Shown: in pieces, positions 1-61,131 of the stretch | Layout: every line of letters starts with the position of its first letter | How positions within the stretch are numbered: the first letter of the stretch is position 1 | Assembly: GCA_030390025.1 (NCBI GenBank) | Contig: CM059431.1 | Coordinates: 123,506,001 to 123,570,000 of the forward strand | Length of the DNA: 64,000 bases | Direction of reading: 5' to 3' | Origin: Squalus acanthias | Taxonomy: Eukaryota | The notes under the pieces: generated by a model | Told to the model about the DNA's origin: nothing | What the model saw: the letters and a program-made list of their open reading frames with translations, nothing else | Databases searched by the model: none | Made by a program: the position numbers and the translations under genes

Positions 1-505
1 ATGAATCAATACTCCTCCATGTTGAACACCACTTGGAAGAAGCAATGAGAGTAGCAAGGGCACAGAATGTACTCTGGGTGGGGGACTTCAATGTCCATCA
101 TCAAGAGTGGCTTGGTAGCACCACTACTGACTGAGCTGGCTGAGTCTTGAAGGACACAGCTGCCAGTCTGGGCCTGTGGCAAGTAGTGAAAGAACCAAGA
201 CAAGGGAAATACCTACTTGAACTCGCCCTCACCAATCTACCTGTCGCAGATGCATCTGTCCATGACAGTATTGGTAGCAGTGACCACCGCACAGTCATTG
301 TGGAGACGAAGTCCCGTCTTCACACTGAGGACACCCTCCATTGTGTTGTGTGGCACTACCACCGTGCAAAATGGGATAGATTCAGAACAGATCTGGCAGC
401 TCAAAACTGGGCATCCATGAGGTGTTGTGGGCCACCAGCTGCACCAGAATTGTATTCCACCACAATCTGTAACCACATGGCCCGGCATATCCCTCACTCT
501 ACCAT

Positions 506-2499
506 TGAAGGGATAATTACAGGTCCTAGCCCTTTCGGACTAGCCCAGATCAGGCGTATTCCCCAGATATTTACCTTCAACTAAAGTTAGCGGTAGCCGG
601 ATCCTATAAGACGCTTAATTGGGTCTAAAGGTCAGACTGCCTCTGCCTAAAGGAAAGAAACGGTTCTGAAGATGTTACCGTCCTCCTGATAGTACTTTTA
701 ATAAGTTTAACTAGACTGTAACCTTCCGGATATTATGAGGGTCTGGAATACCCCCCAGAATTCTGCAGAATGAGAGGGGATCTCATTGAAACTTATACAA
801 TTCTGACAGGACTGGACAGACTAGATGCAGGAAGGATGTTCCCGATGGTCGGGGAGTCCAGAGCCAGGGGTCACAGTCTAAGGGTAAGGGGTAAGCCATT
901 TAGGACAGAAATGAGGAGGAATTTCTTCACCCAGAGAGTGGTGAACCTGTGGAATTCTCTACCACAGAAGGCAGTAGAGGCCAATTCATTAAATATATTC
1001 AAGAAGGAGTTGGATATATTTCTTAAGGCTAAAGGGATCAAGGGATATGGGAGAAAGCAGGGACAGGGTTCTGAATTTGGATGATCAGCCATGATCGCAT
1101 TGAATGGCGGAGCAGGCTAGAGGGGCCGAATGGCCTACTCCTGCTCCTATCTTCTATGTAACTCCTCACTGAAGAGTGTACAGAAATTTGAGTTTGCGAG
1201 ATGATACAGAAATACTCTGAGAAAATTCTAAAAATATATAGATTTATTAAAGAACCGAAATTTATGGCAATCGAAACTTTAACCGTTCAAAATACAAATA
1301 GCTTACATTTCTTATCAGAGATACTTATTCTCAAATCTTAACTTTGTTACATTTCCACACTTCTACTTATTTCTTAATCCAGAATATCCACCAAAATCAA
1401 ATAGCTTGATTACCCGAGACTCAAAAGTTAAAAACTTACAGATCATGTCTGTGAAGTTGAGAAACGCTTGTCTTCCCAGCGACTTCTGACTTTCCATTTG
1501 AAAAGCTCTTATTTTTATATCTTTTTTGCAGTGGTTTATTCTTTGAAGTTTCTGCTGATGTAAGCTAATTGTCTTTATTGATATCTCTGTTGAATGCTTT
1601 CTGTCTTTACTGTCAATTTAGCCATTGCATGCATAATTATGTCTCTACCTTAGATGTTTCAAAAACCATCATAAACACAATGACAGCAATGGTTTCTGTT
1701 TGATACAATTCTTATTGAAGGTCTCCCATTCAATTCTTAATATTGGCTTAACTGGTTATTACCAGACGTCGTGTCTCCTACATGTTCCAAGTTTAACACA
1801 AACAATGTGATTGCTTGATGCATGCATTGATGCCATTTTCAAAGTCTTTCTGTAGGTATATTTTACAACTTGTAAATACTTCATCTAGGGTGTTCCATAC
1901 ATTTCTTATTTACTTCAATTGGTTTTTATCAGACCTCGGGATTCCATATTTCAAGCTTAACATTAAAGCTATTTGTTCAGCAGGCATTTCTTTTACTTAA
2001 TGTCATTTCTTCAAAGCCTTCTGTAGGTATCATATTTACAATATGTAAATTGAAAACACTTTAACTCGGTGTTTACTTGTTTTCTAGCTATCTCAATTGG
2101 TTGCATATTTAATCGTGTTTCCTGTCTTATTTGATGTTATATTATGAAGGCTTATGGTTGTTTAATATTCTAAGTTTCTGTTTGCATCAGTGTTAGCTTT
2201 TAACACTTTAAACTGGGTGATTCCATTGTGTTGGTTCCAATGCTCAGACATAGAGGAACCTTCAATGGTTTGCTTCAATAGGGCATTGTTTCAGTATTTT
2301 TAACTAATTCCCATTTCAAAGCTTGTGGTGTTTTACAACTTTGTTTAACAACTGATCTTATCTCAGAAGCCTGTATTTCTGCCTGCAGCCTTGTCTGCTA
2401 AGGCTTATGTCTTTTAAACCCAGTATGTCATTTATTAATAATTTCAGAAATCTGTTCTTAATATCTTGTATTTTTCTGAATCCTGGCTATTCCTTCACA
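506..2499 (-). mobile_element. Probable solo LTR (about 1.6 kb after removing a nested CR1 fragment)
   Basis: TG...CA termini (TGAAGGGATA / TATTCCTTCACA) with imperfect inverted ends. 4-bp TSD ccat at 502-505 and 2500-2503; the LINE sequence rejoins exactly when compared with 24071-24090. TATA-like TATAAAAA on the minus strand near 1512-1519. Orientation is inferred. Confidence 0.65.
767..1159 (+). mobile_element. CR1 LINE family B, 5'-truncated 3' fragment nested in the solo LTR
   Basis: ORF 770..1084 (RGDLIETY...RGHSL...RRNFFTQRVVNLWNSLP) is the typical CR1 ORF2 C-terminus. The 3' UTR is ...gaatggcctactcctgctcct. Confidence 0.9.
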
Positions 2500-4055
2500 C
2501 CATTACCATCAAGCCAGGGGACCAACACTGGTTCAATAAGGAGTGCAGAAGAACATGCCAGGAGCAGCACTAGGCATACCTAAAAATGAGGTTCCAACCT
2601 GGGGAAGCTGCAACACAGGACTACATGCATGCTAAAAAGTGGAAGCAGCATGCTATAGACAGGGCTAAGCGATCCCACAATCAACGGATCAGATCAAAGC
2701 TCTGCAGTCCTGCCACATCCAGTCGTGAATGGTGGTGGGCCATTAAATAACTAACGGGAGGAGGAGGCTCCATGAAAATTCCCATCCTCAATGATGGTGG
2801 AGCCCAGCACATGAGTGCAAAAGACAAGGCTGAAGCGTTTGCAACCATCTTCATCCAGAAGTGCCGAGTGGATGATCCATATCGGCCTACTCCTGAGGTT
2901 CCCACCATCACAGAAGCCAGTCTTCAGCCAATTCGATTTATTCCATGTGATATCAAGAAACGCCTGAGTGCACTGGATACAGCAAAGGCTATGGGCCCTG
3001 ACAACATCCCGGCTATCGTGCTGAAGACTGGTGCTCCAGAACTAGCCATACCTCTAGCCAAGTTGTTCCAGTACAGCTACAACACTGGCATCTATCCGAC
3101 AATGTGGAAAACTGCCCAGGTAATCCTCTCCACAAAAAGCAGGACAAATCCAATCCGGCCAATTACTGCCGTATCAGTCTACTCTCAATCATCAGCAAAA
3201 TGATGGAAACTGTCATCAACAGTGCTATCTAGCGGCACTTACTCACCAATAACCTGCTCACTGATGCCCAGTTTGGGTCCCGCTGAGACCACTCGGCTCC
3301 CGACCTCATTACAGCCTTGGTCCAAACATGGACAAAGGAGCTGAATCCCAGAGATCAGGTGAGAGTGACTGCCCTTGACATCAAGGCAGCATTTGACCGA
3401 GTGTGGCATCAAGGAGCCCTAGTAAAACTGAAGTCAATGGGAATCGGGGGGGGAAACTCTCCACTGGCTGGAGTCATACCTAGCACAAAAGAAAATGGTT
3501 GTGGTGGTTGAAGGTTAATCATCACAGCCCCAGGAAATCGCTGCAGGCGTTCCTCAGGGCAGTGTCCTAGGCCCAACCATCTTCAGCTACTTCATCAATG
3601 ACCTTCCCTCCAACATAAGGTCAGAAATGGGGATGTTTGCTGATGGCTGCACAGTGTTCAGTTCCATTCATAACTCCTCAGATAATGAAGCAGTCCATGC
3701 CCGCATGAAGCAGGACCTGGACGACATTCAGGCTTGGACTGATAAGTGGCAGATAACATTTGCACCACACAAGTGCCAGGAAATGACTATCTCCAACAAG
3801 CGACAGTCTAACCACTGCCCCTTGACATTCAACGGCATTACCATTGCTGAATCCCCTACCATCAACATCCTGGGGGTCGCCATTGACGAGAAACTTAACT
3901 GGACCAGCCACATAAATACTGTGGCAACAAGAGCAGGTCAGAGGCTAGGTATTCTGCAACGAGTGTCTCACCTCCTGACTCCCAAAAGCCTTTCCACCAT
4001 CTACAAGGCACAAGTAAGGAGTGTGATTGAATACTCTCCACTTGCCTGGATGAGT

Positions 4056-4783
4056 AGTGTAGAGGAAGAAAGGGACCTTGGAGTGCATGTCCACAGATCC
4101 CTGAAGGTAGGAGGCCAAGTAGATAAGGTGGTTAAGAAGGCATACGGAATGCTTGCCTTTATTAGCCGTGGCATAGAATACAAGAGCAGGGGGGTTTTGC
4201 TTCAACTGTATAAAACACTAGTTAGGCCTCAGCTAGAGTACTGCATGCAGTTCTGGTCACCACATTACAGGAAAGATGTGATTGCACTAGAGAGGGTACA
4301 GAGGAGATTTACAAGGATGTTGCCGGGAGTAGAGAATCTTAGCTATGAGGAAAGACTGGATAGGCTGGGTCTGTTTTCCTTGGAACAGAGGAGGCTGAGG
4401 GGAGATCTTATTGAGGTGTATAAAATTATGAGGGGCATAGATAAAGTGGATAGAAAGGATCTATTTCCCTTAGTAGAGGGGTCAAAAACCAGGGGTCACA
4501 GATTTAAAGTAATTGGGGGAAGGTTTAGAGGGGATTTGAGGGGAGGTTTCTTCACCCAGAGGGTTGTGGGGGTCTGGAACTCACTGCCTGAAAGTGTGGT
4601 AGAGGCAGGAACCATAACCACATTTAAAAAGTACTTGGATGTGCACTTGGATGCTCTAACCTGCAGGGCTACGGACCAAGAGCTGGGAAATGGGATTAGG
4701 CTGGATAGCTCTTTGTTGGCCGGTGCGGACACGATGGGCCGAAATGGCCTCCTTCCGTGCTGTAACTTTCTATGATTCTATGA
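4056..4783 (+). mobile_element. CR1 LINE family B, 5'-truncated, nested in the family A LINE
   Basis: Encodes ERDLGVHV...LYKTLVRPQLEYC...FFTQRVVGVWNSLP and ends in the CR1 terminal repeat ttctatgattctatga. Confidence 0.9.
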
Positions 4784-5226
4784 ACAGGACAAAGCAGCCC
4801 GCTTGGTTGGCACCCCATCCACCACCTTAAACATCCACTCCGTCCACCACCAGCGTACCGTGGCTCCAGTGTGTACCATCTACAAGATGCACTGCAGCAA
4901 CTCGCCAAGGCTTCTTCGGTAGCACCTCCCAAACCCGCGACCTCTTCCACCTAGAAGGACAAGGGCAGCAGGCGCATGGGAACACCACCACCTCCAAGTT
5001 CCCCTCCAAGTCACACACCATCCTGACTTGGAAATATATTGCCGATCCTTCATCGTCGCTGGGTCAAACTCCTGGAACTCCCTACCTAACAGCACTGTGG
5101 GAGTACCTTCACCACACGGACTGCAGCGGTTCAAGAAGGCGGCTTCTCAACGGCAGTTAGGGATGGGCAATAAATGCTGGCCTTGCCAGCGATGCCCACA
5201 TCCCATTGACGAATAATTAAAAAAAA

Positions 5227-12727: not shown

Positions 12728-12770
12728 TCACCTGAGGAAGGAGCAAATCGATAGCTCCGAAAGCTTGTGA
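12728..12770 (+). ncRNA. Minimal hammerhead ribozyme motif (mirror copy on the minus strand at 10485-10527)
   Basis: tcac-CTGAGGA-a-GGAGC-aaatcgata-GCTCC-GAAA-gc-tt-gtga; helix I tcac/gtga; palindromic helix III AAGCTT. Confidence 0.8.
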
Positions 12771-15245: not shown

Positions 15246-16238
15246 GTGTGCGTACTGTATGGGGCATGGTTGCTAGGCGAGGGCCGGAGTAACCTGGAGG
15301 ATTTAAAGCAAGGTTTAGTCCACTCCTGGATCAGCAACAAGCACCTCGCAGCCCTCCACCCATTTGAGAATTCACTAAGCCCGTGTCAGCTCTGTCTAGC
15401 CTCTGAAGCCTACCCTGTACTAGTAGATTGTGGGTGTTCCAATCACACTATCATGGGGATAGTGGTGAGGATGCCGGTCATGGGTGGGACCGCCCGACCC
15501 GCACTGGTATACAGGGTGCAGAACATTGGAGTCATTCAAGGGGGTGCACACATCCGTTTCACAGCGGTCCCACCTTATGTCATAAAGTGGGAGCATGCTA
15601 TGACAGGTACTGGCGTCTCCGGGTGCCGGAGCCGGGGTTCACACATAATACTGTGTCCCCAGCACTTGAACGCCTATTCTAAACCACAGTGTGGGTTTAA
15701 AGCTGCGGGCGCACGACCTATAAATTGTACCATGGAAGCCATGGCACAAGACCATGTTCCCCCACAGGTAACATATATAGGAGGTGGGACATATTGTGTC
15801 ACCACCAGCGCGCCTCACTACCAGTATGGACAGCATACCTGGTGTCCAGTAAGTGACAGCAGTTTCTGCTTTAAACCCGAGGCAGAAGTTCAAGTGGCCC
15901 AGGAACAGATTGTCCCCATTCCTGAACCCTCCACTGTTCACCTCACTGTAACACAAAATTTCACCAACCTGCAAAAATATGTAGCACATTTTGGCTACGA
16001 AATTCCCCCTCTACCGGAATGCCTTACCAAGTTACTAAAAGCTGTAGAGCTCTCTCAAAAACATTTCTACACTTTAGAACAAAATACACACGAGATAGAG
16101 AGAGAGATTCAAGGTATCACAGTCCCACCCTGGTGGGACATCTTCGAAAACATAGAGGTCCCTTCATGGGTCAGAATGGCTTCCCACCTCCTCGTAGTTT
16201 GCCAACTGGGAATAGTATTGTACCTGTTGTGCACTTAG
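15246..16238 (+). pseudogene. env: Envelope glycoprotein TM-subunit-like ORF (foamy virus Env / F-protein-like), N-terminally truncated
   Basis: 330 open codons immediately upstream of the PPT and 3' LTR. Cys-rich ectodomain, N-glycosylation sequons (NHT, NCT, NFT), heptad-like helix, PPWW membrane-proximal motif and a hydrophobic anchor. Family assignment is from recalled similarity only. Confidence 0.7.
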
Positions 16239-16615
16239 TGCAAGGGAAAGGGCAGAATACTACAGTTCCAAAATGAAAGGACTTGGAAGAAGCATTATGC
16301 TGAGGTGGAGATAGATACACCTGTTTACATTTTTTAATTCTGTGTTCCTGAATAAAGATTGTTGTTTTTTTGTGTTTTGTTCTTTTTAATAAAGATATGT
16401 GTTTTCCCAAGCAGTGCAGGGGTGTTGGACCCTCTCCGTGCTTGGTTGTGAAAGAAAGATTTTCTTGCCTGTATGTACCTAAAACACCACATTTAAAGGG
16501 GAATGTATGTTTGGGTTTTAGTTTAGGTAATACAGGGGAAGGTTGGTTTTCGGGGATCAGGAATTTTGTCCACCCAGGACGATACTGTAGTGAACTGAAG
16601 TATCGCAGGAGGGAC

Positions 16616-17528
16616 TGTAAGATTTCCAAAATTTACAGATCCCCCAAAAAATATCTAAAGGAAAAAAATAAGGACTTTGTAACTTTAAAGGAACATGTCT
16701 GGACATGAACAGCACGTGGATTGTCTGGGACTTCAAAGCCCAGCAAACATTAACATTTGGACAATAGGCCCTGGGAAAAGGCCACCCCGCCCAAAACACA
16801 GAGCCCATAGGAATGCTAGGCCCAGCAAGGAACCCAAAGCATGAGAACAATGCAAGCTTCCATGGAACAACAGCTCAACAGGATGTAAACCATTTGATTT
16901 GGTTTAGCATAGTTGAAAGCCCATCAAAATTTAACAAGACAATGAACAAGCCTCACCTGAAACTCACTGCATTACGAAACCAGTTTTCGTGAGGAGTTTT
17001 GTGGGGGGGGGGGGTGGGGCTGAAAAAGGACTATATCTGCAGCAGGACCCAAGATCTCTTTCTCTTTTGACTCGCCGACCACGCTGGAATGCTCCCTCTC
17101 AGCTCTGCCCAGAAGCCACATGGTAAAGGAAGACATTTGATGACCAGAATCTCCATCGACTTACCTGGCTGGATTTCGTACTGTTAATACCCCTGTTTGG
17201 TGAGCATTATCCCTGATCTCCTGAAACCGAAACCTAGATAGAAGTGGGATTTTTGGGAGGGATAAAGGTTTATTTTCTTGTATACTGTCATTTTCCCTCG
17301 CCTGTAACCGTGTGTTCTCTAAACCTGTTTAAGTGTGAAGTGTGTTTAAGTTTGTTACCTTTTAATTTTAATAAAAGTTACAGTTCTTATCATCGGAACC
17401 TGTTGTCTACTGCATATTTATTCACAACCCCTAAATAAGTCCAAGTTTTGAACCTGGGGCGTGGGAGCGATTTGAACCGCTCACTGAGTCAGGGGAAAGG
17501 CTGACCCCTAAAACAACCACTCCCTACA
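16616..17528 (+). repeat. 3' LTR of the env-bearing element
   Basis: Starts TGTAAGATTTCC after the PPT and ends CCCTACA before the TSD. TATA-like at about 17032; AATAAA at about 17370. Confidence 0.85.
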
Positions 17529-18165
17529 CATTCTATTCTCATACTCTCTTTTGCCCCTCGTATTTTCTTTTTCACTTCCCCTCTGAACTTTCTATATTCA
17601 GCCTGATTCTCACTTGTATTCTCAACCTGACATCTGTCATACGCCCCTGTTTTCTGCTTCATCTTACTCTGTGTCCTTTCATCATCCAGGGAGCTCTGGC
17701 TTTAGTTGCCCTAACTTTCAGCCCCCCCCCCCCGCCCCGTCGGAATGTACCTCGACTGTCCCTGAACCATCTCCTCTTTAAAGGCAGCTCATTGTTTGAT
17801 TAAGTTTTGCCTGCCAATCTTTGACTACAATTTACCCATTCTCAACCCACTGAAATTTGTCTTCCTCCAATTAAGTATTTTTACTCTAGATTGCTCCCTT
17901 TCCTTTCCCATAGCTAATCTAAATCTTATGATACTATGATCATTGTTCTCTAACTGTTCCCCTATTGACACCTGCTCCACTTGACCCACTTCATTCCCCA
18001 GAACCAGATCCAGCAATCCCTCCTTCCTCGTTGGGCCGGAAACGTACTGATCAAGAAAGTTCTCCTGAACACACTTCAGAAATTCTTCCCCCTCTCTGCC
18101 CTTTACACTATTACTGTCCCAGTCTATATTAGGATAATTGAAGTCCCCCATTATCACCACTCTAT

Positions 18166-19060
18166 GGGGGAAAAATTCAGTTGCTTGCGCCTCCTGTTAG
18201 CGCCTTAAGAGGGCGCTAATGGGGCGCAAAGCAACTAGCGCCCGGGCGCGACGATGTTTGCGCTGCTCGCGAAATTAACTATACATTTTGCGGTGGCGCT
18301 AAACACTACCGCCACGATCTCCTGCGCCAGCAGATTGTGACGTCAGTCGAGTGCGCAACGCCCCGGTAGCGCCCCGGAGCGGATATTGAGTGGCGCCCCC
18401 TGCCTTACCGCCTGCCGCTAGGAACGACAGGTTGAGGGGAGCATTTTGCAGTCAGGAAGGGACTGGGGGAGCGCTATTTAAAGGCGACCGCTTCCTGCCT
18501 TTTTTTGTTGGTGACATTTTTGAAGCACGCATTCTGAGAGAGAGAGAGAGAGAGACTTCTCGAGAGATTCAACGCTGTGTGAAGGAGTTTTGGGTACTGA
18601 GCAGCACTTTGCAGTGTCATTTTAATTTGCCCTTCCTTGTATCGATTTAGAAGAGACAGTGGGGGCTGCACTCTGAGCTCTTTCCCTGGTACTCTCCATT
18701 GTTCTTTCCAGCAGATTTGATGTACAAGTCTCTCCAGGCTGAGATTCAAGGCTGCAATGAGCAGGGTGTGGATGGGAAGCAAGATCAACCCACCCCTTTA
18801 AGAACTGGCCCACGCCATTGTGTGTGTGTTCCATTGTTGACTGACATCACATGAGCTTCGCCAGCGCTCTGAGGTAGCACCTCGCTCCTCGGCCTTTGCG
18901 CCTTAAGACAGATGTGTAGCGCCTGATTTAGCGCTCCAATCACCTCCAGGGGCGATAAACGTCAAGTTTACAGTCGGAGGTGATAATTAGCGCCAGGCGC
19001 TAATCTTTGCGCCCGGCCGATAATTGCACCCCAAAGGGGGCAAAACTGAATTTTTCGCCC
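18166..19060. mobile_element. Non-autonomous PIF/Harbinger-type element (MITE)
   Basis: TIR GGGGGAAAAATTCAGTT / AACTGAATTTTTCGCCC (16 of 17 match). 3-bp TSD tat at 18163-18165 and 19061-19063. Confidence 0.85.
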
Positions 19061-20534
19061 TATAGTTCTTGCACCTCTCAGTAATTTCCCTGCAAATTTG
19101 CTCCTCTATATCTTTCCCACAAGTTGGTGGCCTATAGAATACACCTAGTAGTGTAATTGCACCTCTATTATTTCTTAACTCTAACCAACTAGATTCTGTC
19201 CTTGACCCTCCAGGACATCCTGACTCTCCAGCACTGTAACATTCTCCTTAACCAATACTGCCACCCCACCTCCTTTCTTTCCTTCCCTATCTTTCCTGAA
19301 CACCTTATATCCAGGAATATTTAAAACCCAATCCTGTCCTTTTTTGAGCCAGGCCTCCGTTATCGCTAGAACATCATATTCCCATGTGGCTATTAGCACC
19401 TGCAGCTCACCAACCTTATTTACCATGCTTTGTGCATTTACACACATGCACTGTAAACCTATCTTAGACCTTCTTGTATTCTCTCTTAGTCTGACTCCAT
19501 CTAATACCTTACTATTTCTTGTCTCTCCCAAGCATTTGCGCACTTTTTTGTTTCTCCTTTCTAATGCTACATCCTGGTGCCAATCCCCCTGCCAAATTAG
19601 TTTAAACCCTCCCCAACTAGCAAACCCCCGCATGAGGATATTGGTTCCGGCTCTGTTGAGGGGCAACCCGTCCAGCCTGTACAAGTCCCAACTCCCGAGA
19701 ACCGGTCCTAAAGTCCCAGGAATCTAAAGCACTCCCTCCTGCACCATCTCTCCAGCCACATATTCATCTGCTCTATCCTCCTATTTCTGTACTCACTAGC
19801 TCATGACACCGGGAATAATCCAGCGATTACTACTTTTGAGGTCCTGCTTTTTAATTTCTTACCTAGCTCCCTAAAATCTGCCTGCAGGACCTCATCACTC
19901 TTTCTACCTATGTTGTTGGTACCGATATGGACCACGCCTCTGGCTGTTCACCCTCCCCACTCAGAATGTTCTGCAGCCGCTCAGTGACATCCTTGACCCT
20001 GGCACCAGGGAGGCAACATACCATCCTGGAATCATGTCTGCGGCCGCAGAAACACCTGTCTGCTCCCCTAACTATCGAATCCCCTATCACTATTGCTTTC
20101 CCGATCTTCCTCCTCCCCCCGCTGTACAGCTGAGCCACCCGTGGTGCCGTGGACTTGGCTCTGGCTGTACTCCCCAGAGGAACCATCGCACTCACCAGTA
20201 AATACTGGTTGGAGAGTGAGATGCACTCAGGGGACTCCTACACTACCTGCCTGGTCCTCCTTGTCTGTCTGGCGGTCACCCATTTCCTCTCTGCCTACAC
20301 ACCCTTACGCTGTGGGGTGACCACTTCCTGAAGCGTGCTATCCACGTAGCTCTCGGCCTCATGGATGCACCATATTGATGCCAGCTGTTGCTGAAGCTCT
20401 GAAACCTTTCTTCTTTTTTATTTTACCAATGTCTTGTGCATCTGACTCACAAATGTTTACATGCGATAAGACAAAACAAATGAAAAGAGCCACAAGATTT
20501 ATTCGGGTCTGCTGTTTTCAAATTAGAAAGAAAA

Positions 20535-21372: not shown

Positions 21373-22025
21373 ACCTGTGCTCAGTGATGAGCGGGGACTC
21401 TTTTGCCTGTGTGTCAACCACCTTTTCATTTTGATTTTCAAAGCTTGATTAGATAGAAGACATTTACCAACGTTGACAATATTAAGGTTAACAAAAAAAT
21501 TATATAGATCTTTTTCCTACTGCCAGTGTGCTGTGACATCATTTGGGCCAAGCGTTTCCTCCGTACTTGTCCCCAGATACACATGTCATCTGGGCACAAT
21601 CCAATTACGTGGCTTAAAAGATCGTGAGGCCTTGGGTGGTGCAAGTGACTCATTTGCACAAGCAAATAAAATTTTCATGAGTCAGCAGACAGCAGCTGCA
21701 TGAAATCTAAGGCGGTGAAAAATGGGGCATATAAAGTGAATGAAGCTAACAACATACTAGTGTCTACAGGACCCTTACCTTCAGCAATCCAGAAATAACC
21801 CTCCCCATATGTTCAAGTGTGGATTCCCATGTAACACTCCCTTTGTGCATGATGAAAAAGAAGTGTTACCACTAGAAAAGATAAAAAGCATGCATCCAAA
21901 GCCATATTTATGCAAATTGTATAAACTCGCTGCTGCTTTGAAAAGATCAAATGGATGAAATTGAAACAAGCTTGAATAGAAACTGTCAGCTGTGGCTCAG
22001 TTGGCAGCACTCTTGTCTCTGACTT

Positions 22026-22648
22026 AGAGGATTTGAGTATAAGAGTAAAGACGTCTTACTGCAATTATATAGGGCCCTGGTGAGACCACACCTGGAGTAT
22101 TGTGTACCGTTTTGGTCTCCTTACCTAAGGAAGGATATACTTGCCATAGAGGGAGTGCAACAAAGGTTCACCAGACTGATTCCTGGGTTGGGAGGATTGT
22201 CCTATGAGGAGAGATTGAGTAAACTGGGCCTATATTCTCTAGAGTTTAGAAGAATAAGAGGTGATCTCATTGAAACATACAAAATTCTTACAGGGCTTGA
22301 CAGGGTAGATGCAGGGAGGATGTTTCCCCTGGCTGGGGAGTCGAGAACCAGGGGTCACAGTCTCAGAATAAGGGGTCGGCCATTTAGGACTGAGATGAGG
22401 AGAAATTTCTTCACTCAGAGGGTGGTGAATCTTTGGAATTCTCTACCCCAGAGGGCTGTGGAGCTCAGTCATTGAGTATATTCAAGACAGAGTCCAATAG
22501 ATATTTGAATATTAAGGGATATGGGGATAGTTCAGGAAAGTGGAGATGAGATAGAAGATCAGCCATGATCTTATTGAATGGCGGAGCAGGCTCGAAGGGC
22601 CAAATGGCCTACTCCTGCTCCTATTTCTTATGTTCATATGTTATGTTC
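22026..22648 (+). mobile_element. CR1 LINE family B 3' fragment
   Basis: ORF 22080..22475 (RPHLEYC...RRNFFTQRVVNLWNSLP); ends in ttatgttc repeats. Confidence 0.9.
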
Positions 22649-22802
22649 ACAAGGTTGTGGGTTCAAGTCCCACTTCAGAGACTTGAGTGCAAAAATCTAG
22701 GCTGACACTCCAGTGCAGTAGTGAGGGTGCGCTGTACTGTTAGAGGTGTCGTCTTTCAGATGAGACATTAAACTGAGAACCTGCCTGTTTTCTAAGGTCG
22801 AT

Positions 22803-25707
22803 TAGGGAATGGTAGCATAGTGGTAATGTCACTGGGTTAGTAATCCAGTAGGCCTGGACAATGATTCCATGAGACGTGAGTTCAAATCTCACCACGGCCG
22901 CTGGGGAATTTAAATTCAGTTAATTAAATAAATCTGGAATAATTACTAGTATCAGTAATGGTAACCATGAAACTATCGGATTGTCGTAAAAACCCATCTG
23001 GTTCACTATTGTCCTTTAGGGAAGGAAATCTGCTGTCCTTACCTGGTCTAGCCTATATGTGACTCCAGACCCACAGCAATGTGGTTGACTCATAACTGTC
23101 CTCTAAAATGGCCCAGCAACCACTCAGTTGTAACAAACTGCTATGAAAAACAATAATAAGAATGAAACCGGACAGACCACCCAGCATCGACCTCGGCACT
23201 GGCTACGGATATGGCAATGGCACACCCAACCCAATCGAATCTGCAAAGTCCTCCTCACCAACATCTGGGGAATTGTGCCAAAATTGGGTTGCTGTCCCAC
23301 AGACTAATCAAGCAACAGCCTGACATGGTCATATTCATAGAATCATACTTTTCAGCCAATGTCCCAAACTCCTCCATCACCATCCCTGGGTATGTCCTGT
23401 CCCACCAGCAGGACAGACCCACTAGGGGTGGCAGCACAGTGGTATACAGTCGGGAAGGAGTTGTCGTGGGAATCTTCAACATTGACTGAGGACCTCATGA
23501 AGTCTCATGGCTTCAGGTCAAGCATGGGCAAGGAAACCTCCTGTTGATTACCACCTACTGCCTTCCCTCAGCTGATGAATCAGTACTCCTCCATGTTGAA
23601 AACCACTTGGAAGAAGCACTGAGAGTAGCAAGGGCACAGAATGTACTCTGGGTGGGGGACTTCATTGTCCATTACCAAGAGTGGCCCGATAGCACCACTA
23701 CTGACCGAGCTGGCCAAGTCCTTAAGGACATAGTTGCCAGTCTGGGCCTGCGACAGGTGATGAGAGAACCAACACGAGGGAAAAAACTACTTGACCTCAC
23801 CCTCACCAATCTACCTGTCGCAGATGCATCTGTCCATGACAGTATTAGTAGCAGTGACCACCGCACAGTCATTGTGGAGACAAAGTCCCGTCTTCACACT
23901 GAGGACACCTTCCATCGTGTTGTGTGGCACTACCTCCGTGCTAAATGGGATAGATCCAGAACAGATCTAGCAGCTCAAAACTGGGCATCCATGAGGCGCT
24001 GTGGGCCATTAGCAGCAGCAGAATTGTACTTGACCACAATCTGTTACCTCATGGCCCGGCATATCCCTCACTCTACCATTACCATCAAGCAAGGGGACCA
24101 ACCCTGGTTCAATAAGGAGTGTAGAAGAGCATGCCTCAGCAGCACCAGGCGTACCTACAAATGAGGTGCCAACCTGGGGAAGCTGCAACACTACATGCAT
24201 GCTAAAAAGTGGAAGCAGCATGCTATAGACAGGACTAAGCAATTCCACAATCAATGGATCAGATCAAAGCTCTGCAGTCCTGCCACATCCAGTAGTGAGT
24301 GGTGGTGGACCATTAAACAACTAACGGGAGGAGGAGGCTCCATGAATATCCCCATCCTCAATGATGGTGGAGCCCAGCACGTGAGTGCAAAAGACAAGGC
24401 TGAAGCGTTTGCAGCCATCTTCAGCCAGAGTGCCGAGTGGATGATCAATATCGGCCTCCTCCTGCGGTCCCCACCATCACAGAAGCCAGTCTTCAGCCAA
24501 TTCGATTCATTCCATGTGGTATCAAGAAATGGCTGAGCGCACTGGATACAGCAAAGGCTATGGGCCCTGACAACATCCCAGCTATCGGGCAAAAGACTTG
24601 TGCTCCAGAATTAGCTGCGCCTCTAGCCATGCTGATCTAGTACAACTACAACACTGACATCTATCCGACAATGTGGAAAACTGCCCAGGTATGTCCTGTC
24701 TACAAAAAGCAGGACAAATCCAATCCAGCCAATTAACGCCCCATCAATCTACTCTCAATCATCAGCAAAGTGATGGAAGGTGTCATCGACAGTGCAATCA
24801 AGCGGAACTTACTCACCAATAACCTGCTCACTGATGCCCAGTTTGGGTTCCGCTAAGACCACTCAGCTCCCGACCTTATTACAGCCTTGGTCCAAACATG
24901 GACAAAGGAGCTGAATTCCAGAGGTGAGGTGAGAGTGACTGCCCTTGACATCAAGGCAGCATTTGAACGAGTGTGGCATCAAGGAGCCCTAGTTAAACAG
25001 AAGTCAATGTGAATTGGGGGGGAAAACTCTCCACTGGCTGGAGTCATACCTAGCACAAAGGAAGATGGTTGTGGTGATTGAAGATCTATCATCACAAACC
25101 CAGGTCATCGCTGCAGGAGTTCCTCAGGGCAGTGTCCTAGGCCCAACCATCTTCAGCTGCTTCATCAATGACCTTCCCTCCAACATAAGGTCAGAAATGG
25201 GGATGTTCGCTGATGACTGCACAGTGTTCAGTGCCATTCATAACTCCTCTGATAATGAAGCAGTCCATGCCCACATGCTACAAGACCTGGATGACTTTCA
25301 GGCTAGGGCTGATAAGTGGCAAGTAACATTCACGCCACAGAAGTGCCAGGCAATGACTATATCCAACAAACGAGAGTCTAACCACCGGCCCTTGACATTC
25401 AATGGCATTACCATCGCCGAATCCCCCACCATCAACGTCCTGGGGGTCACCATTGACAAGGGCAGCAGGCGCATGGGAATACCACCACCTTCAAGTTCCC
25501 CTCCAAGTCACACACCATCCTGACACGATCCTTCATTGTCGCTGGGTCAAAATCCTGGAACTCCCTACCTAACAGCACTGTGGGAGTACCTTCACCACAC
25601 GGACTGCAGCGGTTGAAGAAGGCCACTCATCAACACCTTCTCAAGGGCAACTAGGGATGGGCAATAAATGCCGGCCTTGCCATTGCCGGAACAATTTTAA
25701 AAAAAAA
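22803..25707 (+). mobile_element. CR1-group LINE family A, 5'-complete with a tRNA-derived head, single APE-RT region (decayed), internal deletion at about 25458
   Basis: A-box-like TAGCATAGTGG and B-box GAGTTCAAATC at 22813-22890. APE coding begins at about 23250 (QPDMVIFIESY, PGY, DRPTRGG). RT motifs GVPQGSVLGP and MFADD. A-rich tail at about 25699-25707. Confidence 0.88.
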
Positions 25708-28039
25708 CCCATGGCATTATTTTGAAGAAGAGCAGGGGAGTTATCCTCGGTGTCCCGGCCAATATTTATCCCTCAATCAACATCACAAAATCAGATTATC
25801 TGGTCACTATTACATTGCTGTTTGTGGGAGCTTGCTGTGTGCAAATTGGCTGTAGCGTTTCCTACATTACAACAGTGACTAGACTTCAAAAAGTATTTCA
25901 TTGGCTGTAAAGCGCTTTGGGCATCCTGAGGTCATGAAAGACGCTATATAAATGCAAATCTTTCTTTTTTTATATAAATGATGTTTGATGCTGATCCCTC
26001 AGACCTGTTGTGCAGTATGCTTATACTGACAGTGCATTGCTGTTCTTATGTGTGCACAGTGGTAGTTCTCAATGTTCTATTATGGTGTGTACTTCCTTAC
26101 AATCCATCTGCTTGCAATTGTATTTAAAAAGCTCTGCAGCACTCAGTTTCATTATATTATCAGCATTGTTGAAATACATTTAAACTGTATAATTACACAA
26201 TGGCTACTGGGAACAGCAGCTTATAGTAATCAGCAGAATAGCTAATTATTCAACTACGCATTGTCCATTCGTGCAATTGATTTGAATCATAGATGGCTGA
26301 AACTGTGACTTATAAACTAGGATTTAGGTGTAGCATTTATAGTGGGTACTTGTTACAGCATTGAAATTCAGAATAACAATGTTTTACTACAGAAGTTTCA
26401 GTTATCAGGATGAACAACGTCCTCATTATCTGTTGCCAGGCTTATTGTTGAAACTACAGTAGATGTATTCATGTGAAAAATGAAAGTGAGAACAACTCCA
26501 GATATGCATTGTTTCATGCCACTGCTAGTAAAGAAATGATATAGAAAAGAACTCAATGCAAATCAGACATAAGTAGTTTTTGTTTAAGTAGCCAGAAGAT
26601 AGATAAGTAAGGGGTTGTCATTTCTATCTTAACTTACAGTTTGTAATGCTATTGTTGAGTCAGGGAATGAAACCAATATGCAGAGGGCCTATTCGGAAAT
26701 GGAACACAACTCTTTTGGAATAACATTTTTGAGATACAGTATATGAGTAATTCGAGACATGACATGTGGTAAGTATAGCATGCTTGGGAGGAACAGGTGA
26801 CTTTGGCACTATGTTTCCTAAAGGTTTCCTCCAGTGGGGTTCTCCTCACCTCACATCTGGGTCTATTGTAGACTGATTGATAGAGATTGATTGCTATGAT
26901 TAGTCAACAACGTCGTTATCATTGTACCTTGGACTATCAGGATGGTAGAAGGTGGACTAGATGGACCTTGGTCTTTTTTCATCCAGCAATTCTTCTGTTC
27001 CTGTATAAATTATTATTACTACAGTAAAGCATCTTGTATACAAATGTGAAAAAGTTGAGAAACAGTATTGCCACAAAGTGCTGCAGTACTGTTACAAGGT
27101 GAAATGTAGATGGAAATATATGTACAACATGGCAGGAGATATTTTGAGACAACTGTTGCATTTTAATTGGATTTGGATTACAAGGCATTTGTCATTATGT
27201 ATAAAAAATAATCTTTTGAAAAAACTTTCCAACATATCTGGTGAAATTCTAATTCAGGCATGACTGGTTTGCTAAGAAATGATTTGCTTTCACAGTAATT
27301 AAAACACGGGAGATAGGCTGTCGTAGCAAGGTCGGCTGTACATGGCTGCTAGGCAATGGAAATAAATTAGGATAATTTTCAATTTTTTTATGAAGTTGAT
27401 TAAAAAATCTCTGTTGGAAACATGAACCCAATGGCAAAACTTTGCAAAGTGTGTTCCTGTGATAAAAAAAACACAACACAGTGGTGAATCCCTGCAGGGA
27501 AAAGGAATGTGGCGAAGTGTGTGAGAAATTAGAGCATTGCAGCAAAGGAAATCACTATAAGAAATGAATCTCACTTCCTTGGGAGAAACAAGGGTATTGC
27601 AAATACTGTAACTAAATGCAAAAACCTCAGCAAAAAAGGACAGCCACACAGTGAATAAACTGCTGGAAAGAGGAATATTTTTGTGTTTGAGTTTCTGTAA
27701 CCAGAAACGACAGGATCACAATAGATTCTTTAAAGGAAACATTGTAAAAAGTTGCTGTGAAACATTGGGAAATACTATATTGTTGAGGCTGCCGTGAAAC
27801 ACGAATTAAGGCTGAATCCATTTGTGTTGAACAAGAGACTTTTTAATCACAGCATGGCACAAAATGGCAGAACCGAAAAACTCCCAGAATTCTCTGGGTA
27901 AAACCTGAGGCCCCGCCCCCTCCTGCCTTAAAGGTAAGGTGCCGTAAAGGGAAGGGGCTGGAAATTTGTCCACAGACGGAAGAGTGGATTATGCTCGTTT
28001 TAGGTGGCGATCCGCCACACAGCTCCCACCAGAATCCGC

Positions 28040-31000
28040 TTAGGTGGTGTGGACGAGACGGTGCGGCGGTCTGATGGGCCGGCCGGAGCGGCTCTTGTAG
28101 GACGCCGGTGGACGTGGAATGGCCGGGCGTGGAGCAGCCGGGTGAACCGGCTTGAGGGCAGGTCGGCCACGTGGAGGTGGACGAGCTACAGGGACCTGCT
28201 CACCGGGCTCCGAGTGTGCTGGCTTGAGTCGGTCAACCAACACTTTTTCGGTCCTGTCGCTCACCTGCAGGGTGAAAAATTTGTCCCCAGCCTGTAGCAC
28301 CTTGTAGGGCCCGTCATACGGGGGTTGAAGGGGTCCGCGGTGGGCGTCGTGCCGGACGAAAACAAACCGTGCCTGGTGCAGGCTTAGTGGGACGTGTGAG
28401 GTGGATTCGCCGTGCCGGGCAATGGGCACCGGGGCGAACTGCAGCGCCGGTGAGGCGAAGTCCTGGCGTTGCTGGTCGGCTGACCAGGGTGTCGTGGCGG
28501 TGGGCAGGAACTCGCCGGGTACGCGCAGCGGCTGACCGTACACGAGATCTGCTGCCGATGCTTGGAGGTCTTCTTTAACCGCAGTGCGCAGGCCGAGGAG
28601 GACCCACGGAAGGCGGTCGGTCCAGGCGCCGTCTTGGAGGCTGGCTCGAAGAGATGCCTTCAAGGATCTATGGAACTGCTCACACAGTCCGTTGGCTTGG
28701 GGGTGGTACGCTGTGGTGCGGTGAATGGTCACCCCGAGATTGCGTGCGACGGCGGTCCAGAGTTCAGAGGTAAATTGCGGACCTCTGTCCGACGTCATGT
28801 CAGAGGGGACACCGAACCGTGCGACCCAGGTGCTGACGAAGGCTCTGGCGATGTCGGCGGTGGTGGTAGAGGTCAGTGGAATTGCCTCAGGCCAGCATGC
28901 GGTGCGGTCAACGATGGTCAGCAAGTGCGTGTGGCCTTGCGACGGCGGCAGGGGCCCAACGATGTCCACGTGGATGTGGTCGAATCTCCGCGAGGGGACG
29001 GTAAACTCCTCGAGGGGTGCTTTCGTGTGTTGCTGTACCTTGGCCCGTTGGCAGGCTAGGCAGGAGTTGGCCCAAGTACGCACATCCTTGCGAAGGCAGT
29101 GCCAGACGAAGCGGTTGGCTACCAATTTGATGGATGCGCGGGCGCCGGGGTGGGAGAGGTTGTGGAGAATGTCGAATACCCGGCGGCGCCAGGACGCTAG
29201 GACGACGGGCCGAGGTTGACATAGGGATATGTCGCACTTGACCGTGACAGCTGTCGGGCCACAGGCGACGTCGGCCAGGCGTAGCCCTGGTAGGTTGGTG
29301 GGTGCGGAGAGCAGATCAGGGTCGGTGATCTGGTCTGCTGCGAGTTGAGTGTAGTCGACTGCTAGGTGTGCCACGTAGATGGCAGGGCGAGAGAGGCAGT
29401 CGGCTACCACATTGTCTCGGCCGGAGACGTGTTGGATGTCCGTGGTGAACTCGGACACTGCCGCGAGCTGGCGCTGCTGCCTGGCGGACCAGGGGTCGGT
29501 TGTCTTTGCCATTGCGAATGTCAGGGGCTTGTGGTCGACAAACGCAGTGAAGGGGTGGCCCTCAAGCAAAAACCGGAAATGGCGGACCGCCAGGAACAGC
29601 GCGAGGAGCTCGCGGTCGAAGGTGCTGTACTTGACCTCCGGGGGGGCGTATTTGGCGGCTGAAGAAGGCAAGTGGTTGCCAGGTGCCGTCGACCCACTGC
29701 TCATACACGGCGCCGACCGCGTGGTCGGAGGCGTCCGTGGTGAGCGCTACCCTGGCATTGGGCCGTGGGTGCGCGATCAGGGTGGTGTTGGCGAGCGCGG
29801 TCTTGGTGGAATCGAAGGCGGCGGACGCGTCTGCCGTCCATTCGACCGCCATCTTGCCGCTCCTGCCCCGGAGGGCTTCATACAGCGGCCTCATGAGGGA
29901 CGCCGCTTTGGGATGAAGCGGTTATAGAAATTCACCATCCCGAGGAACTCCTGGAGGCCTTTGATGGTGGTGGGGCGGGGAAATTGTTGGACGGCCTGCA
30001 CCTTGGTGGGCAGGGGAATGGCCCCAGCATGGGTGATGTGGTGGCCGAGGAAGTCGATCTTGTCCAGGCCGAACTGGCATTTGGCTGGCTGAGGATGAGC
30101 CCGTGGTCGCGGAGGCGCCCGAACAGGATGCGAAGGTGTTCGAGGTGTTCCTGCTTGGAGGAACTGGCTACCAGGATGTCGTCCAGGTAGATGAACAGGA
30201 ACTTCAGGTCCCGAAGGACCGAGTCCATGAGCCGTTGGAATGCCTGGGCCGCGTTTTTGAGGTCGAAGGGCATCCGCAGGAACTCGAACAGGCCGAAGGG
30301 GGTGATTACGGCCGTCTTGAGGACGTCCGCGGGGTGGACGGTGACTTGGTGGTAGCCGCGCACCAAGTCGACCTTGGAAAAGACTGAGTGGCCGGCCAGT
30401 CTAGCCGAGAAGTCCTGAATGTGCGGCACGGGGTACCGATCAGGGGTGGTGGCATCATTGAGGCGGCGGTAATCCCCGCAGGGGCGCCAACCTCCGCCTG
30501 GTTTGGGGGCGATGTGGAGTGGGGAGGCCCAGGGACTGTTGGAGCGGCGGATGATGCCGAGCTGTTCCATGGTGGCAAACTCGGTCCGCGCGATCTCCAG
30601 TTTGGCCGGGTCCAGCCTGCGGGCGTGGGCGTACACTGGGGGGCCTGTGGTGGGGATGAAGTGTTCCACCCCGTGTTTGGCGGCCTCCGCGGAGAAGGTC
30701 GGATTGGTAAGTGCTGGGAATTCGGCCAGGAGTGCCGAGTCGTCATCCGTGGCCCGGGCGTGGCACTGTGACGCCATGTCGGCGGGTTGACGGGGGGCCA
30801 TGGCGCCCAGGATGGGGGACATGGTGTTCATGTCCACGAGGCGGTGACGAGGGATGTCTACCAGTAGGCCGTGGGCGCACAGGAAATCTGCGCCGATGAG
30901 GGGGGAGAGCAACTTGGCAGTCATGAACTCCCATCGGTAGCAGTGACCAGCGAGGTCGAGGGTGACTGTCCGGGTGCCATACGTCCGGATTTCCGAGCCG

Positions 31001-31851
31001 TTAGCAGCAGCCAGCGCCGGTCCTTGTTCGCCCTTTTGGATGTCGAGGGAGGAGGCCGGGATGATGCTGTGCTGAGCCCCAGTGTTGCACAGGAACCGGC
31101 GGCCGGTTTTGTCATCCGTGACGAACAGCAGGGAGCCCACGTGGCCCACGGCCATCGCGGGTGCTGGAACGGGGGCGGACTTGAAAGAGCAGGGAGTTGT
31201 GTACCGTTGTGCCCTGGCGCCGAACCGTGCGTGGTAGTAACAGTGGCCCGGGTTAGTGGGGCGTGAAGGCCCCGTGGGCCTGGTGACAGGCCCTTGTGGC
31301 CGCGTGGTGGCCGGTGAGGGGCGCGCCCAGGCATTGGCTGCCAGGTCCGGAGTGACGTCGCGGCTGGAGTGAGTGGACAGCAGCTTGTCGGCCTCATCGG
31401 CCAGGGCTTCCAGGTTCATGAGGCCGGACGCCACGATCGCTGGGCGGATGCTGAGAGGGAGCTGTCGGATGAACAGCGTGTGGAAGAGGGATCTGGGTGG
31501 GCTCTCGTCGGTGAGGGAGAGCATGTGGGAGAGGAGGTCTGACGGTGAGGCATCACCGAGGCCTGGAAGGTCGAGGAGGTGGCAGTTTCGCTGATATGCC
31601 GAGGCTGTAAATATTTTAAGGAGCGCTGTCCTGAGATGTGCATACTTGCCTTCCTCTGGTGGGTTCTGCAGTGTTGTCCAAACCCTGGAAACTGTGGCGC
31701 TACCGAGTGATGTGACGAGATAGTCGTACTTCGTCCCATCTGCGGTGATATTTTGCAGCCAGAAGCGAGATTCAGCTTGGAGAAACCAGGCTTCGGGCTG
31801 GTTTTCCCAAAACTCCGGCAGTTTCACGGAAACTGCGTTCGTGTCTGCCAT
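28040..31851 (-). pseudogene. gag-pol: gag-pol polyprotein (Gag, protease, RT, RNase H, integrase) broken by frameshifts
   Basis: Gag VKLPEFW...AWF.QAE and a CHCC-like motif CYYHARFG..A.RY..PC; protease FLCNTGA (catalytic D appears as N); RT YLDD; RNase H TDAS and YSTFDRELLA; integrase H..SH/C..CQ, DIVGP, SDRGPQF, YHPQANG and GPY. Split across ORFs 29932..31851, 29562..29894 and 28040..29704. Confidence 0.92.
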
Positions 31852-31876
31852 TGCAGTGCTCGGAATACGTTCTGAG

Positions 31877-31890
31877 CGTCGGGGTCACCA
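31877..31890 (-). promoter_or_regulatory. Primer binding site complementary to tRNA-Trp
   Basis: TGGTGACCCCGACG starts after a 1-nt spacer following the 5' LTR and matches the 3' end of vertebrate tRNA-Trp. Confidence 0.88.
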
Positions 31891-32172
31891 ATGTTGAGGC
31901 TGTGGCGAAACACGAATTAAGGCTGAATCCATTTGTGTTAAACAAGAGACTTTTTAATCACAGCATGGCACAAAATGGCAGAACCGAAAAACTCCCAGAA
32001 TTCTCTGGGTAAAACCTGAGGCCCCGCCCCCTCCTGCCTTAAAGGTAAGGTGCCTTAAAGGGAAGGGGCTGGAAATTTGTCCACAGACGGAAGAGTGGAT
32101 TATGCCCGTTTTAGGTGGCGATCCGCCACAATATCAGGAGCTCAGCAAACCTTTCAGAACTATCAAGAAAAT

Positions 32173-36707: not shown

Positions 36708-37493
36708 AAACATTCGCACCACACAAGTGCAAGGCAATGACTACCTCTAACAAGCGAGAGTCTAACCACCGCCCCTTGATATTGAATGGCATTACCATCA
36801 CTGAATCCCCAACCATCAAACATCCTGGGGGGTCAGCATTGACCAGAAACTTAACTGGACCAGCCACATAAATACTGTGGCAACAAGAGCAGGTCAGAGG
36901 CTGGGTAGTCTGTGGCGAGTGTCTCACCTCCAGACTCCCCAAGCCTTTCCACCATCTACAAGGCACAAATAAGGAGTGTGATGGAATACTCTCCACTTGC
37001 CTGGATGAGTGCAGCCCCAACAACACTCAAGAAGCTCGACACTATCCAAGACAAAACAGCCTGCTTGATTGGCAACCCATCCACCACCTTAAACATTCGC
37101 TCCCTCCACCACCGGCGTACCGTGGCTGCAGTGTGTACCATCTACAAGATGCACTGCAGCAACTCACCAAGGCTTCTTCGGCAGCACCTCCCAAACCCGC
37201 GACCTCTACCACCTAGAAGGACAAGGGCAGCAGGCACATGGGAACACCACCACCTCCAAGTTCCCCTCCAAGTCACACACCATCATGTCTTGGAAGTATA
37301 TTGCCGTTCCTTCATCGTCGCTGGGTCAAAATCCTGGAACTCCCTCCCCAACAGCACTGTGGGAGTACCTTCACCACACGGACTGAAGCGGTTCAAGAAG
37401 GCGGCTCACCACCACTTCCTCAAGGGCAATTACAGATGGGCAATAAATGCTGGCATTGACAGCGACGCCTAGATCCATGAACAAATAAAAAGA
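36708..37493 (+). mobile_element. LINE family A 3' fragment
   Basis: IYKAQIRSVMEYSPLAW...LHHRRTVAAVCTIYKMH; colinear with 3755-4055 plus 4785-5220. Confidence 0.9.
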
Positions 37494-60668: not shown

Positions 60669-61131
60669 GGAAAGATAGCATAGTGGTTATGCTACTGGAC
60701 TAGTAATCCAGAGGTCATGATTTCACAATCCCACCATGGCAGCTGGGGAATTTAAATTCAGATAATTAAATAAATCTGGAATAAAAATCTAGTATCAGTA
60801 ATGGTGACCATGAAACTACCAGATTGTTGTAAAATCCCATCTGGTTCACTAATGTCCTTTATGGAAGGAAATCTGCCATCCTTACCTGGCCTGGCCTATA
60901 TGAGACTCCAGACTCACAGCAATGTGGTTGACTCTTAACTGCCCTCTGAAATGGCCTAGCAAGTCATTCAGTTGGACCAAACCACAACAAAGAAGTATAC
61001 TTCTATACCACATGGACTGCAGCAGTTCAAGAGAGCGGCTCACCACCACCTCCTCAAGGTCAATTAGGGATGGTCAATAAATGCTGGCCTTGCCAGTGAT
61101 GCCCATATCCCATGAACAAATTTTAAAAAAA
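60669..61131 (+). mobile_element. tRNA-derived SINE composed of the 5' head/body and the 3' tail of LINE family A
   Basis: 60669-60982 aligns with 22805-23138; 61008-61131 aligns with 5112-5226 and 37374-37490. Confidence 0.88.

Follow-up and report, generated by a model that had tools for sequence, protein, structure and literature searches.

The window analysed here, 64,000 nt of the Squalus acanthias genome (contig CM059431.1, positions 123,506,001 to 123,570,000), contains on its plus strand, from position 22805 to about 25707, a worn copy of a LINE family of ~3.3 kb that is inserted into a SINE. The parts of this copy, its host SINE and the related copies in the window are as follows.

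22805..22895, plus strand: tRNA-derived head, the 5′ end of the full-length element (RF00005 match, 28.2 bits; 5′ ends of the copies)
22813..22823, plus strand: Pol III A box TAGCATAGTGG (from its sequence and its states across copies)
22878..22888, plus strand: Pol III B box GAGTTCAAATC (from its sequence; identical over 12 nt in 32 of 39 copies)
22896..23139, plus strand: conserved leader, or 'body' (common to the short forms; compared by eye with published consensuses)
23103..23127, plus strand: hairpin with a 7-nt anticodon-like loop at 23113-23119 and a central AGC (AGC kept in 41 of 43 copies)
23140..23142, plus strand: GCT in the APE-RT frame, putative PKI-like codon partner for the AGC loop and start of the AUG-less coding arm
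23140..25654, plus strand: decayed single ORF with a basic 40-aa arm, APE, RT and a C-terminal domain; its length in the family consensus is 971 codons
23162..23323, plus strand: out-of-frame, AUG-started short ORF overlapping the start of the main ORF (48 codons in the consensus)
25454..25455, plus strand: position where 380 internal nt are deleted in the window copy only
25655..25707, plus strand: short 3′ UTR and A tail
22647..22804, plus strand: 5′ half of the host SINE, interrupted by the insertion (aligns to the intact copies at 52898-53037 and 5447-5287)
25702..25971, plus strand: 3′ half of the host SINE (aligns to 53055-53319)
1..5225, plus strand: further copy of this LINE, interrupted and in three pieces (1-506, 2499-4055 and 4785-5225)
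36709..37488, plus strand: 5′-truncated copy of the same LINE
60669..61131, plus strand: short non-coding form, derived from the LINE by internal deletion and retaining head, leader and the final ~100 nt

An earlier note on this DNA had placed the start of the element at 22803, which is corrected here to 22805. The tRNA-like head that it described is real: both boxes can be located, and the Rfam tRNA model RF00005 matches positions 22812-22893 with 28.2 bits, just below its gathering score of 29 (E 0.097 over the whole window). ARAGORN calls no tRNA gene at the head, as is expected for a head of the SINE type. Head and body run straight into the APE-RT coding sequence, as claimed, with the first APE motif at 23248 and no space for an ORF1, and Pfam searches with pieces of the copy return Exo_endo_phos_2 and RVT_1 (PF14529/PF03372, PF00078). 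The note was also right in placing the unit between the halves of one SINE, since these form a contiguous alignment with intact copies found elsewhere in the window (52898-53319 and 5224-5454). The label Deu that the note gives this SINE is putative; PMC5499810 describes SacSINE1 as the shark Deu SINE. The copy has a single A tail, and the locus represents, as proposed, one insertion of a real, once-autonomous family. The window copy itself is dead, with five in-frame stops and five frame-shifting indels in the coding region, deletions of 380 nt and 14 nt, and a 1-nt deletion that damages the 3′ stem strand of the leader hairpin. It is 94% identical to the family consensus, compared with 95-98% for the other 15 copies used to build it. 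No clear target-site duplication is seen in the window copy, and loose candidates, counted without a control, occur in 11 of 16 copies.

The junction between head and APE is not unique to this locus, so that one of the two findings that would have counted against the note's reading does not apply. A 698-nt query spanning head to APE was used to score 40 loci among 11,660 candidates; the junction is present at all 39 other scored loci, which match at 89-91% and each start within the first 37 nt of the query. Twenty of these 39 loci were taken at 6 kb; each of them starts no later than nt 9 of the query, and their flanks are unrelated. A head-blind sample was obtained with an APE-only query (40 scored of 5,759, all 39 other matches examined). 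All 39 continue upstream along the leader until their ends, which lie at scattered positions, with eight reaching nt 1-7; family members with a different 5′ UTR and an ORF1, which the note had named as evidence against its reading, number 0 among these 39. An apparent alternative 5′ UTR common to two of the loci (L062 and L216) proved to be a ~750-nt MITE insertion beyond which the leader resumes. Likewise, 5 of 29 truncated copies appear to end at consensus nt 348-353 (P=0.04), but a hot spot of 5′ truncation there was discarded, since in two of these copies a MITE has inserted and the leader continues upstream of it. The 3′ ends of the copies are A-rich, that is, a poly-A tail. The anticodon-type loop of the head reads AGT in the family consensus, which makes the head Thr-like; this isotype is our own reading of the loop.

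A consensus was built from 16 copies, namely the window copy and 15 of the 20 long loci, picked because they are free of large insertions. It has a single intact ORF, the point that the note had proposed to test: one stop-free frame of 973 codons carries APE and RT together with their catalytic motifs, and none of the 20 long loci is an intact copy. Among non-CpG variants in 52 aligned pieces, those shared by at least three copies are synonymous in 32 of 76 cases, as opposed to 312 of 1156 private variants (Fisher p=0.008). This enrichment of synonymous changes among shared variants indicates that the source elements were under selection for the protein, and on these grounds the family is judged to have been autonomous once, with a master whose single APE-RT ORF was under purifying selection. 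The synonymous excess is of moderate size (42% versus 27%).

The match to a published family identifies the element as elasmobranch Zenon in a dead copy; this LINE of the CR1 group, which lacks ORF1, was catalogued by Stuart et al. 2026 (PMC13343379). Their SquAca_Zenon-1 agrees by eye with our family consensus nearly base for base over its first 400 nt. Zenon elements in elasmobranchs, coelacanth and hagfish all lack an ORF1 and end in a poly-A tail (PMC13343379). The absence of ORF1 that the earlier note stressed is thus a genuine feature, but one common to all Zenon elements surveyed in that paper, and hence not a consequence of the head. The note's question about other chondrichthyans is answered by the published Zenon-1 consensuses of five elasmobranchs, whose elements are more than 84% identical (PMC13343379). 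In the published rows (SquAca_, CarCar_, RhiTyp_, ScyCan_ and HypSab_), which are 3244-3314 nt long, all five begin with an A and a B box. Going by the species codes, we take one of the five species to be a ray and four to be sharks. By eye, no head with A and B boxes is found in the first 400 nt of the hagfish and coelacanth Zenon rows. Intact ORF2s are few in Table S3 of PMC13343379 (3 of 612, 1 of 1419 and 1 of 294). The main text of that paper contains no occurrence of 'tRNA', 'Pol III' or 'polymerase III', and the passages of it that we consulted do not address the head, the depletion of T runs or the missing AUG. No report of a tRNA head, T-run depletion or AUG-less start was found in a literature search whose coverage stops short of subscription journals and Repbase Reports. 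The family is thus already known, and its unusual promoter architecture, conserved across sharks and rays, is apparently unreported.

The RT phylogeny suggested in the note was computed with FastTree on 175 RT segments, leaving out one chimeric protein and segments shorter than 230 aa, and it places the shark sequence in the Zenon clade, apart from the CR1-like RTs of the window. The shark sequence and a lepidopteran protein fall in a clade of 40 members (support 0.98) from which the window's three CR1-like RTs are absent; within this clade, the shark sequence groups with an invertebrate Zenon locus (L071) and with P0001 and P0002 (support 0.76). The name Zenon for this clade rests on the match to the published SquAca_Zenon-1 and not on labelled references in the tree. 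Scans for further Zenon loci yielded none in viral contigs and none in the first genome-contig scan, and of the loci from the second genome-contig scan only L113-L115 and L143 fall in the clade. Membership of the RTEX clade, which has an RTE-group RT, was also considered and was ruled out by the match to published Zenon and the grouping with CR1-group RTs.

Runs of four or more T residues end Pol III transcription in vertebrates. The consensus has no TTTT in 3270 nt, which answers the note's question about sense-strand terminators; 3.9 runs of this length or longer are expected from composition (P=0.014), and runs of at least three T residues number 7 against 19 expected. Genomic copies carry 0.13 runs of four or more per kb (61.9 kb), versus 2.3 and 3.8 per kb in CR1-like coding sequence of the same genome, for which one comparison set was taken from the window (16 such runs versus 19 expected) and one from the flanks. 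The invertebrate Zenon L071 has 7 runs versus 6.6 expected and no Rfam tRNA match upstream, and 36 related metagenome and MAG loci have 1.6-11.9 runs per kb. Phenylalanine is encoded by 3 TTT and 15 TTC codons in the shark family, compared with 13 and 16 in the invertebrate relative. For the ORF alone, the absence of T4 runs has a P of 0.05-0.32 under stricter nulls, while its T3 runs (5 versus 11.3) give P=0.004 by synonymous permutation and P=0.14 under a first-order Markov model. The T content of the sense strand is 19-20%. The second base of the B box in this genome is not the canonical one. Overall, the T-run depletion fits transcription by Pol III, and we infer the use of this polymerase from the sequence. 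To our knowledge, a natural Pol III mRNA of 3.3 kb would lie far beyond what is known for Pol III.

The coding frame opens just 3′ of the leader, and the first in-frame ATG of the consensus stands at codon 285 counted from the GCT, 3′ of the APE domain; the window copy does show one in frame, but owes it to a changed CpG. Eight AUGs are found upstream in the leader. A further ATG at consensus nt 358 (window position 23162) is present in 37 of 41 copies, and its out-of-frame spacing is kept in 36 of 41. The leader ends in a hairpin with the loop CTAGCAA, followed by 12 nt and then the GCT, which lies in the APE-RT frame in genomic copies and, by eye, in the published rows of four other species. 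Within the first 400 nt of the five elasmobranch consensuses, the 3′ 160 nt of the leader are nearly invariant by eye. One leader helix runs through an A-U, G-U, G-C series across species in the same by-eye comparison, so that we regard the leader as probably structured whichever model of the start discussed below holds. Its folding z-scores in the shark are unremarkable (-0.02 to 0.4). The 'body' of the earlier note appears to be a conserved leader of the LINE, and possibly its translation signal.

The pattern of hairpin and GCT was defined on the shark first, and L071 is the sole locus of the shark subclade with upstream DNA. At 41% protein identity, L071 has a 12-bp stem, the loop CCAGCTA and an in-frame GCT, a combination reproduced by 2-4 of 4000 shuffles (P about 0.001). 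The arm from the GCT to the APE motif measures 40 aa in the shark and 34 aa in L071, and P0002 has M-A-T-K and an arm of 37; the Arg-rich N-terminus of the shark main frame resembles that of P0002. Indels near the GCT that keep the frame are weak evidence, since they lie in an AAT repeat.

The best explanation of these features is, in our judgement, an autonomous Zenon LINE driven by Pol III, which we consider quite probable. Masters of 3.3 kb encoding one APE-RT protein would be transcribed end to end by Pol III from the A and B boxes of the head, the internal promoter would be copied along with each full-length insertion, and selection would have purged sense-strand T runs, which would stop Pol III. 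Transcripts made by Pol III lack an m7G cap, and no usable AUG opens the frame, so that translation would have to begin in a non-canonical way; the preferred candidate is the structured leader, ending in an AGC-loop/GCU mimic that would set the frame. The RT would then copy its own RNA by target-primed reverse transcription and give rise to full-length, 5′-truncated and internally deleted, SINE-like copies. Within this explanation, the family and its anatomy, the intact single ORF of the consensus and the selection on it, the depletion of T runs and the lack of an AUG are established from the sequences; Pol III transcription, the uncapped RNA and the mode of initiation are the parts that we infer. 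Alternatively, the head could be a passenger, acquired when a Zenon element fused with the 5′ end of a tRNA or SINE and transcribed as before by Pol II from a leader promoter or by read-through, the low T content being a strand bias of LINEs. LINEs are indeed expected to use Pol II (PMC5786205), the sense strand is low in T, and a Markov null accounts for the missing T4 runs of the ORF. However, A and B boxes persist in sharks and the ray, full-length copies begin exactly at the tRNA 5′ end, and neither CR1-like sequence of the same genome nor the related Zenon is depleted of T runs against its own composition, which leaves the passenger head rather improbable. A tRNA-headed 3.3-kb form that is non-autonomous, in effect an outsized SINE mobilised by a different Zenon that has an AUG, would account for the lack of an AUG and of intact copies (0 of 20), but it sits poorly with a consensus frame that is open over 973 codons with catalytic motifs, with the synonymous enrichment among shared variants, with the absence of any other 5′ end among the 39 APE-selected copies, and with the high identity (>84%) between the elements of five species (PMC13343379); we rate it as very improbable.

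How the protein of a Pol III-driven Zenon would start is a matter of two further readings. As a refinement of the preferred explanation, the leader could act as a factor-independent IRES of the IGR type, in which the AGC loop paired with GCU mimics a tRNA and the following ACA or ACG is decoded first; we hold this tentatively, at a little short of an even chance. All five published consensuses retain, by eye, the hairpin, a linker of 11-12 nt and GCTA, with variation in the linker sequence; once defined on the shark, the pattern could be recognised in L071 and in none of 35 other loci, and arm lengths are similar in shark, L071 and P0002. The GCCA variant of the stem has a predicted pairing probability of 0.77-0.82, but 22 of 43 local copies carry GTCA, for which the prediction is 0.03, and the AGC:GCU pairing comprises only 3-4 bp. 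There is no match to an Rfam IRES, and helix enumeration yielded no convincing model of PKII/PKIII, L1.1 or SLIV/SLV. The independent support comes down to one locus, L071, which also has an in-frame AUG six codons 5′ of the APE motif and whose leader does not align significantly with that of the shark (P=0.098); a Zenon of another subclade (L113) has an AUG and lacks the hairpin motif. Generic anticodon/codon patterns are seen in 9 of 35 control loci, and the published row for SquAca_Zenon-1 lacks 1 nt downstream of the GCT and would thereby be out of frame, unlike the genomic copies. The second reading is that translation begins at the out-of-frame AUG at 23162 and shifts by -1 before the first APE motif, or that ribosomes scan to the near-cognate ACG after the GCT. 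The AUG is shared not only by most local copies but also by all five published Zenon-1 consensuses, several cross-species changes are by eye synonymous in its frame, and the ACG is in frame with the main ORF. Against this, most of these changes are silent or conservative in the Arg-rich main frame too, no canonical slippery heptamer is visible by eye in the overlap, the ACG is replaced by ACA or AAA in the published rows of other species, and scanning would need a cap and would have to pass the eight upstream AUGs. A start of the frameshift or near-cognate kind appears unlikely and is ranked below the IGR-type start. The most far-reaching reading combines the parts: an autonomous retrotransposon would bypass the host mRNA pathway twice, by a coding Pol III transcript and by an IGR-like IRES free of cap and AUG, would have been kept since sharks and rays split, and would yield SINEs by internal deletion. 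This combination is to be taken with more reserve than the IGR-type start on its own and strikes us as somewhat doubtful.

LINEs are usually distinguished from SINEs in that they are transcribed by Pol II and coding, whereas SINEs are transcribed by Pol III and non-coding. This division does not hold for a vertebrate LINE that is conserved, present in many copies and equipped with a tRNA promoter, and the element may be transcribed and translated in a manner undescribed for LINEs. If driven by Pol III, it would be a natural Pol III messenger of several kilobases. It also bears on how LINEs with a single ORF begin translation without an AUG. If the AGC:GCU mimic is true, it would be an IGR-type initiation signal outside viruses, relevant to the origin of such IRESs and possibly a tool for protein expression from uncapped RNA.

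Among known systems, the IGR (type 6) IRES of dicistroviruses is the closest parallel to the proposed start: its PKI imitates the pairing of anticodon and codon and fixes a start without AUG (PMC12221177, bioRxiv 2024.04.17.590008), with an anticodon-like loop and a complementary triplet directly before an AUG-less frame, as in the shark. Unlike these IRESs, the shark leader has no identified PKII/PKIII or conserved loop motifs and no Rfam match. IGR-type IRESs in non-LTR elements have been raised as hypothetical only, by Luke et al. 2013 (PMC3894237). The non-LTR elements R2 and L1Tc have uncapped RNA thought to be translated via an IRES-like 5′ structure (PMC6765202), but their RNAs are cut by a ribozyme from Pol I or polycistronic transcripts, whereas the shark element has A and B boxes of its own; at the shark 5′ end, no HDV-like ribozyme, the nested double pseudoknot that heads R2, L1Tc and RTE elements, is matched by Rfam or by a simple scan for the P3/L3/P1 motif.

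The short forms bear on the origin of SINE bodies, since head, body and tail can come from one deletion in a LINE. The form at 60669-61131 has at least 39 look-alikes in the genome. In 21 short forms (20 of the 39 and that of the window) the left breaks fall at consensus nt 338-359 and the right breaks at 3167-3198, and the junction sequences vary by copy. Because they differ from copy to copy, the short forms are read as independent internal deletions of the LINE and not as one SINE that donated its head. The note's proposal that a LINE had captured a SINE head as its promoter is thus upheld in part: the full-length master does begin with a tRNA-derived head, but capture of a SINE's head and body is not supported, the short forms being LINE deletions. 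Of the features that define SINE2 elements, the LINE has the head with A and B boxes, and only the deletion forms of ~470 nt are short and non-coding.

The closest relative described is the elasmobranch Zenon of PMC13343379, which is the same family (3.2-3.3 kb, no ORF1, poly-A tail). The lepidopteran pair of Zenon and Persaeus (PMC6740152) is likewise a single-ORF CR1-group LINE with short, internally deleted copies. Persaeus, whose 5′ end is derived from Zenon, has no tRNA homology and no Pol III promoter according to that paper; in contrast, the short forms of the shark inherit a Pol III-type promoter, and since this is of the tRNA type they are SINEs by anatomy. Bov-tA and CoeSINE4, SINEs based on bipartite LINEs of the RTE/Vingi kind, also join a tRNA head to LINE 5′ and 3′ sequence (PMC5786205). 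There, however, the head was added to a non-coding, deleted LINE, while in the shark a full coding LINE bears it, so that the order set out by Kojima 2018 (PMC5786205), who states that SINEs cannot encode protein, would be reversed, with the head on the full LINE preceding the deletion. Searched supplement files of PMC7245038 and PMC4824008 gave no short-motif match between the leader and known SINE body domains. Bivalve SINEs are known to use CR1-Zenon tails (PMC11481361). In contigs from other organisms, comparable skips lie at several additional positions; since certain of their joints are shared by several contigs, there may be fixed SINE families besides the independent deletions.

The anticodon-type loop of the tRNA-derived head of the Zenon element, the ORF1-less LINE copy (window 22833-22850), reads CTAGTAA in the family consensus and differs by a single base from the CTAGCAA loop of the 3' hairpin of the leader (window 23109-23122), the conserved stretch between the head and the APE-RT frame. 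The leader 3' hairpin loop may be derived from a tRNA arm. In addition, in the consensus the last part of the head (window 22894-22900) could pair over 7 bp with another leader loop, at about 23030-23036; by eye, a shifted version of this pairing is also possible in the first 400 nt of the published consensuses of other elasmobranch species (PMC13343379).

The dinucleotide AC lies immediately 5' of the head in six of 20 full-length Zenon copies (L033, L038, L040, L041, L044 and L046), where it is frequently extended to AAC or GAC, a pattern as if the first bases had been duplicated or added during 5' joining.

Other mobile elements were annotated in the window and in two further Zenon loci of the same genome, L230 and L231:

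Window 10436-12819: inverted-repeat element, repeats flanking a frame
Window 13304-20406, 22023-22633, 48591-52314 and 59206-59926: CR1-like LINE copies
Window 27781-32130, minus strand: GC-rich LTR element with terminal repeats and long frames
Near window 39710-40470: related MITE copy
L230 150-904 and L231 1700-2441: MITE of ~750 nt with short terminal inverted repeats

The MITE occupies an identical insertion point (consensus 350-353) in these two separate Zenon copies, reflecting either target preference or duplication of one insertion.

The CR1-like copies served solely as the T-run control. The LTR element resembles a young retrotransposon of the Gypsy type: its 239-nt terminal repeats share 97.5% identity, and its long frames have matches to DUF7041, RT, RNase H and integrase. 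The inverted-repeat element carries 902 nt at 99.6% identity on both sides of a frame that matches GIY-YIG weakly, as well as a direct repeat of 74 nt. It resembles a young Penelope-like element whose 5' part is inverted.

Near-complete animal-type LINE ORFs also occur on many prokaryotic MAG contigs (L113-L190), most likely through contamination of the bins by host DNA.
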